Origin: an uncultured cyanobacterium
Lineage (GTDB): Bacteria > Cyanobacteriota > Cyanobacteriia > Cyanobacteriales > CAWCAG01
Assembly (NCBI GenBank): GCA_963803805.1
Contig: CAWDOD010000006.1
Coordinates: 96,001-160,000, forward strand
Direction of reading: 5' to 3'
DNA: 64,000 bases
The notes under the pieces are model-generated. The model had not been told where the DNA came from and searched no databases. It saw nothing but the letters and a program-made list of their open reading frames with translations. Below are positions 57,111 to 64,000 of this stretch, one piece after another (within the stretch, counting starts at the first letter, position 1; the number at the start of each line of letters is the position of its first letter). Position numbers and translations under genes: made by a program.

Positions 57111-57264
57111 TTTTAAGTTTACAAAGCCTTTTTAACTATTAATACCTCTATCTTGAGTTATGATTTTTAACGAAAGTGCGATTACCTAAATGACTCATAG
57201 ATCATTTCAAGTTCGCTCTTGTCGCTCACAACTTGATTTAAAGTAGTACGGAGCGTAGAAAGTT

Positions 57265-59250
57265 ATAGACTACTCAAGCTGGAATGATTCAATTGCTAAG
57301 CATTTCTTTAACTCAGAAATGCCTGATTCTACTGTTCATTTATACGTGACAGAAGAACTAATTAACGACCTTGGTAAAGAACAAGAAGTTGACTGTCAAA
57401 ATTTTATTAAGACTATTAAAAGGTCTGTCGGGGAAAGAGGAATCTGCCAAAAAGCTTTAGATAGTTGGGATGATTGGAAATACAGACAATCAAGACGAGG
57501 ATATCCTCCCTATATCGGCTATTTATCACTATTTGTACTTGCAGCAGGAATTGAGGGAGAAGAGTTTGCAGAGAATGCCTATTATCCTCGTTTGAGAGAA
57601 CTTTTAGGAGAAGAAGCCAAGACAGGGCAGTATCCTCATTTTGATGAAATGCGTCAACTATGGGAAGATTTGGAAAGGTGGTCAAGGGAAGATAAAAACG
57701 GCAAGTGGGGAATTTTCAATTGCTTAACAGTTGGCAAAAATCATCATATAGGTTTACCATTAGCGCAAACATTACTTTCTGAAAAAGAACGCAAATGCCT
57801 ACCTAATTTTTTTGCGGAAGCAGGCTTAGATTCAGATAGTTCTGTTTCAGAACAAGCAATAACGTTTTTACTATTAAAACACGGTAAAAGTTTTCTTCGC
57901 CAGTGTAATCAAAGGCTTTTAGAAAATAATAAACATGAAGATTTACGCCAAGCTTTAATAGAAAGGGTAGTTGAAGAGTTAGAAGTTTGGGATGGTACTT
58001 TCCAAGAAACTGAAGCAGAAGAAAGGAAATATTCAGGAACATTAAGGCTATGTTTTCAACTGGATACAGTAGCACAAAAAGTTAGCATGAACCTCCGTTG
58101 CTACACTAAATCTGAATTTCCTGAAGAGGGGTTACAGTTAAAAATAGATGACCAACCTCAAAAATTTGACTGTGAAGAATATGACAGTGAATGGTCTTCA
58201 GTAATTCAAAATATTAATACTACTGACCTAAATTGGGAACAAGATTTAAGAATGCAATCAAGGGATGGTAAATGGCAATTTAGGCTAAAACCATCACCAA
58301 TTCGTTTTTTTGTTAGTGGAGAAGCACAGGGATTACCCGGGTTAATTGAAATCTCTCAAATTCCTCAGAATCAGTCTTTTTATATTACCGCTAAAGCTGA
58401 AGAAACTGAATTAATAGAAGAGTGGGGAAAATCTCAATGTCAAGGTTACGAAGAACTCTTTGATTTTCAAGGTTTACCAAAAAGTTGGCATTTATTTAAG
58501 GTTAATTTAGCTCAAAGTGATGAGTTATTGAGTAAGACTCATCCATCTTTATCGTGGACAAAAAAGGTTAGGCTCAACTTTGTGGGAGGTTTACGTTTAG
58601 GAAAAGGTAATAAATTCTTTGATTTTGCCCCTCCTCAACTTAGATTAGAAGGTAATACTAATTCCCGACAAATTTTAGTTGATAGTCAATCTTTACATAA
58701 AAAGAAGTTTGGATTGTATCAACTTCCAGGGGAATTACCGAAAAATACTAAAATTAACATAGGAGTTTGTCAGGATAATGAGATTATCAAAACTAAATCG
58801 TTAACTTTACTAGAAAGTTACATCTTGCCTCATAATTATGATTTGAAACTAGATTGCTTGGGTAACGAAGCTGACAAAGCTGAATATGTGAATGGGGCTA
58901 TTGTAAAAAAAATAAATATTCCTCCGTTTAATTTTAATACCTTACTTCCTGTACAAGGAAAACAAAGAATTACTTTACTTGGTTCTGAAGTAGGACAAAT
59001 TGCTAATGCAACGGAAGAGATTGATTGGTCGCCTGTCTGGGCTGTTGCTATATCCCGCAAAGGTCAAGCTATATTTTGTGGTGATAAGATCAAAAATTCT
59101 CAACCCATAACTCATACTTGCACAAATAAAAAACAAAGAAAACAATGGAAAGATATTTTATGGACTAAACGCAAAAGAATTACACCTCCTCACAATCGTA
59201 AACAAAGAGAACTTTGGTATCAATATCAACAGGAAGCTAAGGGTGTTTAA
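57265..59250 (+). CDS. Uncharacterised protein, first gene of a helicase cassette (DruF-like candidate); open frame extends 18 codons upstream of ATG 57319 to an ATA
   Basis: In-frame IDYSSWNDSIAKHFFNSE precedes MPDS; motifs PPYIGYLSLFVLAA, YYPRLRELL, LWEDLERWS, IGLPLAQTLL. Confidence 0.7.
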   Translation: MDYSSWNDSIAKHFFNSEMPDSTVHLYVTEELINDLGKEQEVDCQNFIKTIKRSVGERGICQKALDSWDDWKYRQSRRGYPPYIGYLSLFVLAAGIEGEEFAENAYYPRLRELLGEEAKTGQYPHFDEMRQLWEDLERWSREDKNGKWGIFNCLTVGKNHHIGLPLAQTLLSEKERKCLPNFFAEAGLDSDSSVSEQAITFLLLKHGKSFLRQCNQRLLENNKHEDLRQALIERVVEELEVWDGTFQETEAEERKYSGTLRLCFQLDTVAQKVSMNLRCYTKSEFPEEGLQLKIDDQPQKFDCEEYDSEWSSVIQNINTTDLNWEQDLRMQSRDGKWQFRLKPSPIRFFVSGEAQGLPGLIEISQIPQNQSFYITAKAEETELIEEWGKSQCQGYEELFDFQGLPKSWHLFKVNLAQSDELLSKTHPSLSWTKKVRLNFVGGLRLGKGNKFFDFAPPQLRLEGNTNSRQILVDSQSLHKKKFGLYQLPGELPKNTKINIGVCQDNEIIKTKSLTLLESYILPHNYDLKLDCLGNEADKAEYVNGAIVKKINIPPFNFNTLLPVQGKQRITLLGSEVGQIANATEEIDWSPVWAVAISRKGQAIFCGDKIKNSQPITHTCTNKKQRKQWKDILWTKRKRITPPHNRKQRELWYQYQQEAKGV

Positions 59251-60235
59251 TCATAGCGATATTTTACTTTACGCAGTATCTACCAAGCAGGCAATGTCTT
59301 GGTCTTCTTTTAAAAAAGCATTCAGCGAACTATCAAAACAAAATATAGATAGTAGTCGTTTAGAGTCGGAAGAAGTAGGAAAATCTAGAAATCAAACTAG
59401 ACGTTACTTAAGTGCCTTGGCACACTGCGAATTTATCTTTAATAATGATGGTAAGGGTCAAGTTTATGGTTGTTCTCCAACTTTAGCGAGAATACCTTCT
59501 TTGGGCTTTCCTCAAGCTATTTTAACAGGAGTGCGATCGCAACAAACTCTAAAACAGTTACAACAGATTTGCAAATCTAAAAATATTCATCTAGAACAAA
59601 CAAAACAGCCAGGTAAATTGCCATTAATTCCTACTCGTATAGCCGTACAAGCAGAAGATATCAGCGAATTGCAACAACTAGCTGATTCTCTCAGATTTAC
59701 TTTTTTAGAAAATCCTCCTGCTTGGTCAATTAGTTACTTTTCTGCCTCTCTACAAGATTATCAACAAAGTTTAACTTGGTTACAACCAACAGAACTTGAT
59801 CAGGAAAAACAGATATTTAATCTTAAAAACCTTAAATTTCAAAGTAATTCAGCAAATAGTCGTATTTCTCTAAGACAATATACTCATCCCAAAAAGAACA
59901 CTAAAGTTTACTATTTATGGCAAGGGCAAAAAAATGTAGAAGTAGACTTGGCATGGGGGAGATATATTTTTCTTAAGGAAACTAATAAAAATCTTCTTAC
60001 CTACGATGCTAAAAAATTCCTGCTTGCAGTTCCAGTAGCAGCAAAACTTCCCAAACTTTTTGATCGGGCATTAACTCTGTGTTCAGGCTATATTCCTAGA
60101 TTCGTTGAAAAAATACCCAAAATTGACAAAAATATTTACGGCTTTGATTTATATCAATCTGTACCACCGCAAATTGCTCAAATGATTGCCCAAAAACTAG
60201 GTCAAACTCTCAACTCAAAATCTCTAACCATCTAA
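59243..60235 (+). CDS. Uncharacterised protein, second gene of the helicase cassette (DruG-like candidate)
   Basis: Overlaps the upstream stop by 8 nt; LSALAHCEF, LTGVRS, LPKLFDRALTLCSG. Confidence 0.75.
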   Translation: MFNHSDILLYAVSTKQAMSWSSFKKAFSELSKQNIDSSRLESEEVGKSRNQTRRYLSALAHCEFIFNNDGKGQVYGCSPTLARIPSLGFPQAILTGVRSQQTLKQLQQICKSKNIHLEQTKQPGKLPLIPTRIAVQAEDISELQQLADSLRFTFLENPPAWSISYFSASLQDYQQSLTWLQPTELDQEKQIFNLKNLKFQSNSANSRISLRQYTHPKKNTKVYYLWQGQKNVEVDLAWGRYIFLKETNKNLLTYDAKKFLLAVPVAAKLPKLFDRALTLCSGYIPRFVEKIPKIDKNIYGFDLYQSVPPQIAQMIAQKLGQTLNSKSLTI

Positions 60236-60244
60236 AACTAAATT

Positions 60245-63200
60245 ATGTATGACCCCATCGGCGCATTTGAAACTATCCGCGATAATTTTTTGCTGTACAT
60301 CAAAACAGCTTTTGGTACGAGGTTTCCTGAGATAGAAGAGGAAAGGGAAAAGCTGCTACGGGAACCAGGAGAGTTGAATAAACCGGGAGTATTTCATCAG
60401 GAACCTTGGATAGAACCATTGCCACAATACGAAACTTCGGGGAAGAAAATTCAGCAGTTAACTATTAAAAATACTCCAAAGTTGGATGAGGAAACTTTAA
60501 AAGAGTTTCAAGAATTAGCAGCTTGTGGCTTGATGGGAAACTATCAATTATATACGCACCAATTAGAAATGTTGCGTAAAAGTTTATCTGGGCAAGATGT
60601 GGTTGTAACTGCGGGTACTGGTTCGGGTAAAACGGAATCTTTCCTCTTACCTTTGTTTGCCTATCTAACTAAAGAATCTCAAAATTGGCAGCCTCCAAGG
60701 GAAGAAGATCCCCATCTTAATGATTGGTGGAGTAATCAAGATTGGCAAGATAAATGCAATCCAAAAGTGAACACAAGGCATTCATTTAAGCGTTCTTATC
60801 GAGTATCTCAAAGAGGACATGAAACTAGAGATGCTGCTGTTAGGGCGATAATTTTGTATCCCATGAATGCTTTAGTAGAAGATCAACTTACGCGACTACG
60901 CAAGGCTTTAGATTCTCCTCAAGCTAGGGAATGGTTAAGAAAAAATAGAACAGGAAACCGTATTTATTTTGGTCGATATAACGGCGTGACTCCTGTACCA
61001 GGACATGAAAACAAAGAAACTGGTAAATCAAATAAAAAAAAGAAACCAGATAAAAAAAAGATAGACAACCTTTTAAAAGCGATGCAGCAGATGGAAGAGT
61101 CTGCAAATGCTGCTGAACAATATGGAGAAGAAAAAGGTGATAAGGAAGTTAGGTTTTTCTTCCCTCGCTTGGATGGCTCAGAAATGCGCTGCCGTTGGGA
61201 TATGCAAGATGCACCCCCCGATATTCTCATTACTAACTACAGTATGTTGAGTATCATGCTGATGCGAGATGTAGATAAAGAAATATTCGCCAAGACAAAA
61301 GCATGGTTAGAAAAGCCTGAGAGTATTTTCCATCTTATTGTTGATGAACTACACCTTTATCGAGGTACTCAAGGTACAGAAGTTGCCTATTTACTAAGAC
61401 TTTTTCTGCAACGTTTAGGTCTTTATCCTGGTCATCCCAAATTAAGGGTATTAGCTTCTAGTGCTTCTCTTGAACCTGATGATGAGCAAAGTTTAAAGTT
61501 TTTATCAGAGTTTTTTGGTACTAACTGGAAGCCGGAACAAATTATACCAGGCAAACAGAAAGAGATCCCCGCTATTCAAGAACAAGATGTCTTAGATAGT
61601 CAAATTTTTATTGATTTAGTTGAGGAAAAAGAACGAAGTAGTAATTTAGAAGAGTTAAAAGCATCGCCTCAATATAAAAAGTGTGCAGAGTTTGTTGAAT
61701 CTCACCAAGATAACGTGATTGCAAGAATGTTGAATGCTTGCCGCGATAAAGAGAAGAATCAAACTCGCGCTGTATCTTTTACTCAATTTGCTAAAGGCAT
61801 ATTCACTCAAGAATTGGAAACTGAGAAAATCAAAAAAGCAGCAAGAGGACTATTAATTACCAGAGGTATATCAGCAAGTAATCTTTTACCCTCTTTTCGA
61901 TTACATTTATTCTTCCGCAACATTGAAGGCTTGTGGGCTTGTCCCCAGCCCTGTGAAGAAAGTGAAGTAAATCAAAAAGCCCCTGTAAGTGAACTTTTTG
62001 TTAAAAATCCTCCCATACGTCATGATAACAATCGTGTCTTAGAACTGTTATTGTGCGAACAATGTGGCACAGTTTTTTTTGGCGGCAGTCGTCTTGAGTT
62101 AGAAAACAACCAAGGTTGGGAACTATTACCTGTAGAACCAAATATTGAAGTCATACCAGATAGGCAAGTTGGTAGATTTTTAGAACAAAGAACTTATCAA
62201 GAATACGCTATTTTTTGGCCCTACAGAAATATTCATACAGAAGCTAAAAAAGAATGGAAACAACCCAATAGTCAAGTAAAAGTAAGTTGGAAAAAAGCTT
62301 ACTTAGATGTAAATAGTAGTGAAGTAAAATTAGGTAATCCAGAAGATAGGCAAAACAATACAATTAAAGGTTATATATTTAATGCCAAGAAAGAAGCAAA
62401 CATAAGCGCACAGCCTTCAATTTGTCCTTGTTGTGCTGTAAATTATGGAAAACGTACATATTTAAAATCTTCTATTCGGGGTTTTCGTACAGGTTTTTCT
62501 AAGGTTAGCCAGTTATTTTCTAAAGAACTTTTTTATCAGTTACCTGAAGGTGAAGAAAGCCGTAAATTAGTAGTATTTTCTGATAGTAGGGAAAATGCAG
62601 CTTCTTTATCTAACGGCATGGAAAGAAGTCACTATAGTGATTTGATTCGTGAAGCAATATTTTATGAACTAGAACAGTTAGCTATAGGGCAGCCAAGTCT
62701 ATTAGAAGATATTAAACAGTATGGCGAACCTAAAACTGCCGAAGCATTTGAATTTGCGAAACTTTATCCTGATATCCCTAAAAAAATTGAAAAGAATTTA
62801 AAGCGTATATCTCGACCTTTACCAGAAGGTTTAGACCCTGAAGAATTAGAAGATTTACGTGAACTAAAAAACCGATCGCAAAATTTTATCAGAAATATAG
62901 AAAAAATAGGCGAAACTCATACAGTTCCCCTTAAAGTCATGCTGGAAGGAAATAAGGAAGTCCCTGGACAGCTAATTCAAAGATTAGTAAATTTAGGCGT
63001 TAATCCTGCTGGTTATGACCTTTACTCCCAAGAATATAAATATGAAGGCAGAACTTATAACTGGACTCATTTCTTTGACTTTGATTCTAATTCTTTGCAA
63101 TGGAAAGATTTATCTAGTCAAGAATTAGATATTCGCGACAGAAAAATACTAGAAAAGCTTAAATCTGAAGTATGTTCAATCTTTTTTAGTCGCTTGTTTT

Positions 63201-64000
63201 ATAGCATAGAATCGTCAGGATTAGGTTATCCTTGCTTACAACCAGAAGAGACAGAAAAGCTTGCTGAAAGTCTAAAAATAAACACTACTATTTTTGCTGA
63301 TATAGCTAATAGTTGCTTGAGAATCATTGGAGATTCCTATCGCTACCCTAACGAATATAAAGTTGATGACTGGAGTAATTGGGAAGATGCCAATCCCAGA
63401 CTAAAAAACTATGTTACTAAGTGCGCCCATCATAACCAACTTGATGAAACACAATTAAAACAAGCTTTGTGGTCAGCCATTTGTGACCAGGGAAAACACT
63501 ATTGGCTAAAAATTAGTCCCCTACATTTATATTTCAAAGTAGCAACCAAAGATAACCCTGTTTGGCAATGTACCTCCTGTAGTCGCCCTCATCTCCATCA
63601 CTCAGGAGGGATTTGTACCAATTGTAATGAAGTTTTGCCTAGGGAACCTAACAAGACTTGTACTGATTTGTATAGTCGTAATTACTACTCTACAGAAGCA
63701 GTAAATAAACGTCAGCCGATTAGATTTCATTGTGAAGAACTAACTGGACAAACAGATAATCAAGGGGAAAGACAAAGACACTTTCGCAACATTGTTATTA
63801 ATACAGGTAAAGAAGACCGTCCATTTATTCCTAAAGTAGACACAATTGACCTCCTTAGTGTTACTACAACTATGGAAGTTGGGGTTGATATTGGTAACTT
63901 GATGGCTGTGGTTTTAGCTAATATGCCACCTATGCGTTTTAATTATCAACAACGTGCCGGACGTGCCGGTCGTCGCGGTCAAGCTTTTGCAATTAATTTA
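60245..64000 (+). CDS. Large SF2 DEAD/DEAH-box helicase, DruE-like; open to the window end and not in ORF track
   Basis: Motifs checked in one frame from ATG 60245: TAGTGSGKTE, YPMNAL, PPDILITNYSML, DELH, ASSAS, RLHLFFR, CEQC, CPCC, FSDSR, CTSC, EELTGQ, TTTMEVGVDIG, QQRAGRAGRR. Confidence 0.92.
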   Translation, partial: MYDPIGAFETIRDNFLLYIKTAFGTRFPEIEEEREKLLREPGELNKPGVFHQEPWIEPLPQYETSGKKIQQLTIKNTPKLDEETLKEFQELAACGLMGNYQLYTHQLEMLRKSLSGQDVVVTAGTGSGKTESFLLPLFAYLTKESQNWQPPREEDPHLNDWWSNQDWQDKCNPKVNTRHSFKRSYRVSQRGHETRDAAVRAIILYPMNALVEDQLTRLRKALDSPQAREWLRKNRTGNRIYFGRYNGVTPVPGHENKETGKSNKKKKPDKKKIDNLLKAMQQMEESANAAEQYGEEKGDKEVRFFFPRLDGSEMRCRWDMQDAPPDILITNYSMLSIMLMRDVDKEIFAKTKAWLEKPESIFHLIVDELHLYRGTQGTEVAYLLRLFLQRLGLYPGHPKLRVLASSASLEPDDEQSLKFLSEFFGTNWKPEQIIPGKQKEIPAIQEQDVLDSQIFIDLVEEKERSSNLEELKASPQYKKCAEFVESHQDNVIARMLNACRDKEKNQTRAVSFTQFAKGIFTQELETEKIKKAARGLLITRGISASNLLPSFRLHLFFRNIEGLWACPQPCEESEVNQKAPVSELFVKNPPIRHDNNRVLELLLCEQCGTVFFGGSRLELENNQGWELLPVEPNIEVIPDRQVGRFLEQRTYQEYAIFWPYRNIHTEAKKEWKQPNSQVKVSWKKAYLDVNSSEVKLGNPEDRQNNTIKGYIFNAKKEANISAQPSICPCCAVNYGKRTYLKSSIRGFRTGFSKVSQLFSKELFYQLPEGEESRKLVVFSDSRENAASLSNGMERSHYSDLIREAIFYELEQLAIGQPSLLEDIKQYGEPKTAEAFEFAKLYPDIPKKIEKNLKRISRPLPEGLDPEELEDLRELKNRSQNFIRNIEKIGETHTVPLKVMLEGNKEVPGQLIQRLVNLGVNPAGYDLYSQEYKYEGRTYNWTHFFDFDSNSLQWKDLSSQELDIRDRKILEKLKSEVCSIFFSRLFYSIESSGLGYPCLQPEETEKLAESLKINTTIFADIANSCLRIIGDSYRYPNEYKVDDWSNWEDANPRLKNYVTKCAHHNQLDETQLKQALWSAICDQGKHYWLKISPLHLYFKVATKDNPVWQCTSCSRPHLHHSGGICTNCNEVLPREPNKTCTDLYSRNYYSTEAVNKRQPIRFHCEELTGQTDNQGERQRHFRNIVINTGKEDRPFIPKVDTIDLLSVTTTMEVGVDIGNLMAVVLANMPPMRFNYQQRAGRAGRRGQAFAINL

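Follow-up and report, generated by a model that had tools for sequence, protein, structure and literature searches.

Within a 64,000-nucleotide (nt) stretch of an uncultured cyanobacterial genome (contig CAWDOD010000006.1, positions 96,001 to 160,000; hereafter the window), three genes near the downstream end almost certainly constitute, judging from their matches to defence-system models, a complete Druantia type IV system with the order druF-druL-druE (Table 1). An initial annotation made from the letters of this DNA had proposed a Druantia-family defence cassette built around a DruE helicase, and PADLOC models for that family indeed match all three proteins. Our favoured explanation overall, to which we assign a probability of roughly 85%, joins this known type of system with a partnership between DruF and DruL and a proposed mechanism of action. 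The cassette is not new as a type, and current defence-system hidden Markov models would label it at once.

Open reading frame (ORF) calling on the plus strand agrees with the annotated layout of two small genes (about 660 and 330 amino acids, aa) followed by a helicase of more than 1250 aa: druF and druL overlap by 8 nt and a gap of 9 nt separates druL from druE. The helicase ORF is still open at the end of the window, where it has reached 1252 aa, and reading the contig beyond this point extends it to 1914 aa with a stop at window-equivalent position 65989. The two small proteins had been described as lacking any recognisable domain, which holds for Pfam and NCBIfam (no family for either protein) and fails for PADLOC. 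The DruF4 model PDLC00054 covers residues 4-643 of the ATG-start DruF, which is also matched by DruF2 models (E 3.4e-160), and residues 6-329 of DruL align with positions 3-325 of the 330 positions of the DruL4 model PDLC00056. DruE is matched end to end by DruE2 (PDLC00014, 1911.6 bits) and by DruE4 (PDLC00051, 1889.5 bits, residues 2-1911); its match to DruE3 models is partial (366 bits). PADLOC models of DruG and DruM found no match in the three cassette proteins or in eight downstream ORFs, the upstream ORFs being classed as housekeeping by Pfam only.

This is the gene set that Payne et al. (2021, PMC8565338), in the accessible portion of that paper, name Druantia type IV: DruE and DruF with the hypothetical protein DruL, and without the type II proteins DruM and DruG. 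The suggestion that the block was an undescribed variant, and hence a candidate new system, accordingly gives way to an existing type, and the missing methylase is no anomaly because the type IV definition excludes DruM. The same portion of the paper counts 168 RefSeq instances of type IV across 11 phyla, and the accessible part of a 2026 preprint (10.64898/2026.05.13.724313) distinguishes four DruE clades and assigns 18% of 566 Druantia loci to type IV.

The three genes also co-occur elsewhere, as would be expected had the annotation grouped them rightly. With a DruF alignment we retrieved 48 loci from species-representative genomes and annotated them by ORF calling and by phmmer with the three proteins. 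The F-L-E order is present in 47 of the 48, the exception (L003) consisting of fragments of F and E only; 26 loci are cyanobacterial and the other 22 are divided among Acidobacteriota, Actinomycetota, Chloroflexota, Planctomycetota, Latescibacterota and Firmicutes, which makes at least seven phyla for the 48 loci together. DruE is a single ORF of 1880-2010 aa in 34 loci. Damaged or split members include L048, L049 and L050, which are in pieces, and L025, a Pseudanabaena locus in which an insertion sequence with HTH_38 and an rve integrase core (L025:12397-13380) splits druL. The closest named relative of DruF is encoded by a Spirulinaceae metagenome-assembled genome, at 79% identity.

By sequence alignment, DruL is a detached piece of a long DruF. 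In PADLOC's long DruF2 models (1011 and 1030 positions) the N-terminal part matches DruF and the C-terminal part matches DruL, which aligns with positions 749-1007 of PDLC00023. Three natural fused proteins (P0104, P0130 and P0133; 1006-1099 aa) show the same arrangement, with the DruF alignment first and that of DruL after it. A single insertion or deletion within the 8-nt overlap could produce such a fusion artificially; since PADLOC models of long DruF exist, fused F-L forms appear to be common. The 8-nt druF/druL overlap itself recurs in 20 of the 26 cyanobacterial loci. Homologues of DruL comprise 747 cluster representatives at E ≤ 1e-3 in a full-library search, and those of DruF number 194, mostly 660-690 aa long.

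Complex prediction suggests that DruF and DruL probably bind one another. The pair scored 0.81, against 0.00 for the best of three controls; among solved complexes 116 of 157 attain that mark, and among mismatched pairs 2 of 215. Runs had at least 79% of their contacts in common, the predicted local distance difference test score (pLDDT) of the partner was at least 82, and the predicted interface involves DruF residues 516-561, the very stretch that is disordered in the DruF monomer model; DruF 540-557 and DruL H61, W161 and R275 belong to it. A search of the Protein Data Bank (PDB) with DruF and DruL sequence profiles returned no solved relative of either chain, so the score cannot be put down to a complex that the predictor had already met.

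Individual structure models offer a partial view of the two proteins. The DruL model is confident (pLDDT 95; predicted template modelling score 0.93), and its N-terminal ~105 residues run helix-strand-helix-helix-strand-strand in a predicted winged-helix-like topology, the remainder having no recognised fold. Residues 1-105 gave only Z 5-6 against winged-helix proteins (among them MukF, MarR and TubR) in a VIA structure search, Foldseek found no DruL match at E ≤ 0.001, and a protein-atlas language-model look-up was uninformative (best score 0.76). The AlphaFold model of DruF (pLDDT 81) opens with a helical N-domain (~residues 1-241), continues in beta-sandwich domains and closes with a pair of helices. 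Its Foldseek matches in the PDB were limited to template modelling scores of ~0.1 to proteins with multiple immunoglobulin (Ig) domains, and the single Ig-like domain returned by VIA (residues 433-520, Z 7.8) lies inside the stated noise range. Alignments of DruF and DruL contained no conserved residue set of catalytic look.

The third protein carries Pfam DEAD and Helicase_C domains, and its conservation was assessed in an alignment with 34 full-length relatives from the fetched loci (35 sequences). Motifs I, II and VI, together with 15 cysteines in four clusters, are kept in 32-35 of the 35. The several CxxC pairs remarked on in the helicase are real: four lie in the window part of DruE (C604/607, C727/730, C1109/1112 and C1124/1127), all of them kept throughout. 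Further along the protein, the third four-cysteine set (1491/1494/1509/1512) is likewise present in 35/35 at each position and the C-terminal C1772/C1776/C1779 in 32-35/35; a possible 16th cysteine, C1666, is kept in 26/35 only. As for the DUF1998 domain that was to be sought beyond the window, an MZB-like module most likely occurs near the C-terminus, at a score just below the Pfam cut-off: residues 1686-1780, which take in the C1772/C1776/C1779 group, reach 20.5 bits in the whole protein and 24.0 in a C-terminal piece, for a cut-off of 24.2. The objection that the helicase might be devoid of DUF1998 accordingly finds no footing here, borderline as the Pfam score is. This region aligns with the zinc module of PDB 9wae_A and is, on sequence grounds, most likely a diverged DUF1998/MZB zinc module. 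Among solved structures the nearest is this 9wae_A (labelled 'Helicase'; 1970 aa, 7 entries), at E 2.1e-227; it aligns along both halves, across 806 residues at the N-terminal end and 654 at the C-terminal end, the zinc module among the latter, and a literature search found no paper citing it. DruE proteins of Druantia I/II are described, in the accessible part of PMC12458937, as having an inactivated Vsr-like C-terminal nuclease domain. Pfam searches of the present DruE gave no match to a Vsr domain at E up to 5 and none to a PLD nuclease domain.

A distinctive feature of this copy is the beginning of druF. The TAG at 57256 is followed by AAA, GTT and the ATA at 57265, and between that stop and the ATG at 57319 there is no ATG, GTG or TTG in frame. 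The DNA before the ATG nonetheless encodes, in frame, I-D-Y-S-S-W-N-D-S-I-A-K-H-F-F-N. Homologues of DruF start M-D/N-Y-L-x-W-N, with Y3, W6, N7, F14 and F15 almost invariant, and with the 18-codon extension DruF residue 1 aligns with position 1 of the DruF4 model. A sister species (G001) keeps the same TAG and ATA; its copy of the extension is identical at 53 of 54 nt, the sole change being synonymous, a level of conservation matched by only 85 of 8618 54-nt windows of the cassette, whose mean identity is 86.0%. The simplest reading of these sequences is that druF probably initiates at AUA, at 57265, and the annotated start there (about 660 aa) is thus probably right, the 18 extra codons encoding the family's conserved N-terminus. 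The alternative is a conserved leader with druF initiation at M19.

Table 1. Features of the druF-druL-druE cassette; positions are those of the window except where noted.
Feature	Position	Strand	Basis and remarks
druF (type IV DruF)	57265..59250	+	PADLOC DruF4 PDLC00054, E 9.2e-188; 661 aa from ATA 57265, 643 aa from ATG 57319
Putative druF start, ATA in the column of the family's ATG	57265..57267	+	In-frame TAG 57256; homologue alignment
druL, 330 aa, GTG start	59243..60235	+	PADLOC DruL4 PDLC00056, E 2.1e-86
druE, first 1252 of 1914 codons, YprA-like superfamily 2 (SF2) helicase	60245..64000 (whole gene L002:3246-8990)	+	PADLOC DruE2/DruE4, Pfam
Helicase motif I, GSGKT, residues 126-130	60620..60634	+	K and T kept in 35/35 full-length DruE
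Helicase motif II, DELH, residues 367-370	61343..61354	+	DruE alignment
First four-cysteine set, C604, C607, C727, C730, putative zinc-binding insertion	62054..62434	+	Each 35/35
Second four-cysteine set, C1109, C1112, C1124, C1127, putative zinc ribbon	63569..63625	+	Each 35/35
Helicase motif VI, QRAGRAGR, residues 1236-1243	63950..63973	+	DruE alignment

The cassette is present as a single copy between core genes; the annotation had it starting abruptly after such genes. Pfam identifies threonyl-tRNA synthetase, FeoA, a DUF1517 protein, a SIS-domain protein and an M50 peptidase upstream. Isochorismate synthase follows downstream on the opposite strand and is succeeded by UbiA-, ABC-, hydrolase- and MenD-like genes, dehydrogenase genes, a LuxR-type response regulator and an IS200-like transposase. 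With its isochorismate synthase, UbiA-type prenyltransferase and MenD-like thiamine pyrophosphate enzyme, the downstream flank (L002:9149-15571, window-equivalent 66148-72570) resembles a phylloquinone/menaquinone set. The absence of a methylase upstream was correctly noted and extends to both sides: Pfam on both flanks and PADLOC on the eight downstream ORFs revealed no methylase or nuclease gene adjoining the cassette, so that the downstream methylase or nuclease envisaged for the extended contig did not materialise there. No flanking direct repeats, integrase or tRNA were found at the cassette edges; a tRNA-Thr (tgt), the nearest at 7.7 kb, and an IS200-like Y1 transposase lie 7.7-9 kb downstream of druE (L002:16694-18112), both off the cassette border. 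A promoter/terminator scan gave no excess over shuffles (21 versus 26.2; 7 versus 7.1).

Composition says little about where the cassette came from. The first 57,264 bases of the window contain 25 HIP1 octamers (GCGATCGC), about one per 2.3 kb, which fits a cyanobacterial genome. The cassette part of the window (57265-64000) does contain a single site, at 59533, as first noted, but with 2.94 expected from those 25 sites this is not significantly few (P = 0.21), and we rejected HIP1 depletion as evidence of foreign origin. Cassette G+C is 0.363, versus 0.399 for the rest of the window, and falls under all 195 equal-sized upstream windows (minimum 0.368); since the core genes that follow downstream are just as low (0.346-0.393), this is weak evidence.

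In the sister species G001 the cassette occupies the same site, collinear over 16 kb, and nucleotide identity to the host is 86% in the three genes and 85-94% in their neighbours. The shared site and neighbour-like divergence indicate that the cassette is older than the split of the two species. Strong DruL matches occur in only 3 of 40 relatives (G001, G021 and G022), a patchy distribution that leaves the other member of the host's family without one; G021 and G022 have isochorismate synthase on other contigs than the cassette. The horizontal acquisition put forward initially is therefore plausible in view of the patchiness, and conceivable only as an old event given the situation in the sister species.

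Neighbouring genes differ markedly among related loci. Neighbouring ORFs were clustered over as much as 4 kb on the upstream side and ~3.3 kb on the downstream side, where the fetched flank set the limit, and were scanned with Pfam and PADLOC. A C5 cytosine methylase (PF00145, DruM2-like) lies near 22 of the 48 loci, namely 5/26 cyanobacterial versus 17/22 other loci, or 4/14 versus 13/16 where at least 2 kb is available on both sides; these lineage counts are a description and not a test, related loci not being independent. The cassette-linked methylases are diverse (23-63% identity between lineages). The host genome (G000) has four PF00145 genes unlinked to the cassette (C2:1315903-1317180, C2:465804-466751, C10:82644-83726 and C1:110442-111443), and because these are only 29-35% identical to the methylases linked to relatives, no trans-acting DruM can be named.

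By Pfam, L030 and L044 have a gene of the HhH-GPD 'nicking endonuclease' kind beside the methylase, and clustering alone points to one there in L033 and L049; in L037, L038, L041 and L042 the two genes are fused. This HhH-GPD/EndoIII-like partner (PADLOC 'Type II nicking endonuclease'; L030:8085-9981, L044:8192-9995) is usual beside, or fused to, the methylase in other phyla and may be its T:G mismatch repair partner. Directly after druE, 6 of the 22 non-cyanobacterial loci and 0 of the 26 cyanobacterial ones have a PD-(D/E)xK Cas4-like DruK gene, which overlaps the druE end (L032:18805-19905 and five other loci).

Several loci have further neighbours of their own. In the Acidobacteriaceae loci L026 (12334-15641) and L028, an insert of ~3.4 kb separates druF from druL. 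It comprises genes for a 436-aa protein of coiled-coil-like character, which matches CENP-F weakly, and for a 475-aa relative of Hsp70 (PF00012, E 5.7e-37), together with an ORF of 161 aa, an arrangement reminiscent of the CoCoNuT link proposed for Druantia I/II in the accessible part of PMC12458937. A TIR-domain protein (335 aa) is encoded 122 nt past druE in a Dehalococcoidia locus (L035:18910-19917). Directly upstream of druF in a Micromonosporaceae locus, a fusion of XRE-HTH with an M78 (ImmA/IrrE-like) peptidase (L036:6923-8140) is perhaps a regulator.

Whereas the identity and architecture of the cassette can be read from the matches above, how it works is something we infer. Coupled translation of DruF and DruL would yield a heterodimer whose subunits correspond to two halves of the one long DruF of other lineages. 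This heterodimer might then serve as a sensing/adaptor module in the role that DruH has in type III, with the winged-helix-like N-domain of DruL as a possible DNA contact, and might sense or mark phage DNA and recruit or release DruE. DruE, taken to be a YprA-like SF2 helicase that is driven by ATP and carries three conserved zinc modules as well as the DUF1998/MZB one, would load on phage replication intermediates that contain single strands and unwind or strip them. Self/non-self discrimination would depend on DNA structure and not on methylation, probably so because this copy has no methylase or recognisable nuclease gene; destruction of phage DNA, if any, would fall to the C-terminal domain of DruE or to a host nuclease. 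The system would then work through its helicase alone or in concert with nucleases of the host. The template for these ideas is type III, for which the accessible portions of three 2026 preprints (10.64898/2026.05.13.724313; 10.64898/2026.05.12.724681; 10.64898/2026.05.12.722862) portray DruE as a helicase, or a helicase-nuclease, whose substrates are forked DNA or DNA containing single-stranded regions, and DruH as a sensor, single-stranded DNA binder or exonuclease. Taken together, the steps after heterodimer formation are a tentative proposal that we rate at somewhat under even odds.

A more speculative idea, which we consider possible but doubtful, is that cyanobacterial type IV is a minimal form of the system: a DruF-DruL heterodimer, in effect a split long DruF, would sense DNA structure and license a helicase-only DruE, with no methylase or nuclease gene and with expression throttled by a conserved AUA start of druF. 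In that case the genes for the methylase, the HhH-GPD protein and DruK that other phyla have would be add-ons, and the core activity of Druantia would be independent of methylation marks and of a dedicated nuclease. The value of the locus is that of a compact natural example of an experimentally uncharacterised type, with three genes in one copy and no accessory genes. It offers several handles for mechanistic study, namely DruL as a piece of DruF, the predicted F-L interface, the conserved non-AUG start and the lineage-dependent linkage of the methylase, and these side results bear on whether Druantia requires DNA methylation.

A number of points weigh against the interpretation set out so far. 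The two nearly equal DruE scores have no power to separate type II from type IV, for which reason the type IV assignment rests on DruL and on gene content. We found no published experiment on any type IV system, and anti-phage activity is on that account deduced from family membership. Structure and family searches of DruF and DruL gave no fold or family hint of catalytic activity. The resemblance of DruL to winged-helix proteins is weak even at its best (Z 6.0, root-mean-square deviation 2.9 over 78 residues), in a range common for unrelated models, and the complex score expresses model confidence, not a measurement, with alignments built in this analysis. The lack of a canonical start codon at the family's DruF start position could mean that DruF is truncated or made at a low level. 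Finally, with methylases at 17/22 and DruK at 6/22 loci elsewhere, the three-gene form could be a reduced version of the system, less capable or trans-dependent.

Some of these points also lend themselves to other explanations. One is that the cassette is a decaying or silenced copy in which an ATG-to-ATA change at the druF start crippled DruF and the whole is heading to loss. The missing ATG, GTG or TTG between TAG 57256 and ATG 57319 would suit this account, as would the visibly broken family members (L003, L025, L048, L049 and L050), but we consider it unlikely: the three reading frames are intact and of full family length, the DruE motifs are intact, and the sister species retains the ATA together with a near-identical 54 nt whose one change is synonymous, versus 86% across the cassette, which fits continued translation. 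It is very unlikely, too, that the block is a type II Druantia that lost druM and druG, close to the initial suggestion of a type II without druM. The slightly better score of DruE on DruE2 than on DruE4, the DruF2 matches of DruF and the DruM-like C5 methylases near 22/48 related loci can be cited for such a remnant. PADLOC, however, detects no DruG in the cassette proteins or among the eight ORFs downstream, it is the separate DruL gene that sets type IV apart in the accessible portion of Payne et al. (2021, PMC8565338), and an F-L-E order kept across phyla is unlike a remnant.

The initial annotation had also raised a type III-like system in which DruF and DruL would be a split, diverged DruH. 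The lead for this came from a language-model look-up in which DruF residues 1-245 were nearest to the STY4851/ECs_5259 (YjiT_N) family (score 0.89, below the 0.9 line and not calibrated for protein parts; 179/256 features in common), DruH being assigned to the YjiT family in the accessible part of 10.64898/2026.05.12.724681. Direct comparison did not bear it out. PADLOC's DruH models gave no match to DruF or DruL at E up to 10; hhalign of DruF and DruL against an alignment of 24 DruH sequences, relatives of ECs_5259 from E. coli Sakai, gave probabilities of 0.1-0.3% over the whole length and for the N-domains alone; in precomputed Pfam columns, relatives of DruH are assigned PF27201 and those of DruF nothing; and the DruE3 match of DruE is far weaker than those to DruE2 and DruE4. 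With no model match and hhalign probabilities below 1%, we rejected the split-DruH candidate, and a type III-like origin seems highly improbable. Least credible of all is a role outside defence, in which the helicase would be a YprA/MrfA-like housekeeping enzyme of DNA repair and the two small proteins its accessories. The core-gene surroundings, the edges free of integrase, tRNA or flanking repeats, and the presence in the sister species would be compatible with it. Similarity to YprA, though, is limited to ~75 residues (E 1.5e-11), the strong DruL matches are patchy (3/40 relatives, none in the other family member), and elsewhere the cassette sits in other contexts, beside methylases, nucleases, a TIR protein and insertion sequences. 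A Druantia type IV system thus remains our preferred reading.

Placed among known systems, the cassette shares an SF2 core and a C-terminal zinc module with the YprA-family defence helicases of DISARM (DrmA), Dpd (DpdJ) and ARMADA, for which the accessible part of PMC12458937 provides a framework; PADLOC matches of DruE to DpdJ and DrmA are weak and partial (≤ 77 bits), and this locus has none of the partner genes found in those systems. Druantia type III (DruH-DruE) likewise combines a large YprA-like DruE with an upstream partner of unknown fold and, as the only type with mechanistic data in the accessible sources, serves as a working model, but its DruE3 models match partially (366 bits) and the partners here have no detectable homology to DruH. 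Type II (DruM-DruF-DruG-DruE) is nearer, with homologous DruE and DruF and high DruE2/DruF2 scores, and differs in that DruM and DruG are missing here and DruF is divided into two genes. The closest correspondence is with Druantia type IV, whose models match all three proteins end to end, in the same order and on one strand, with no DruM or DruG. Compared with many non-cyanobacterial type IV systems, this copy is without a neighbouring C5 methylase, HhH-GPD gene or DruK, and a second local peculiarity is its ATA at the druF start; nothing essential differs.

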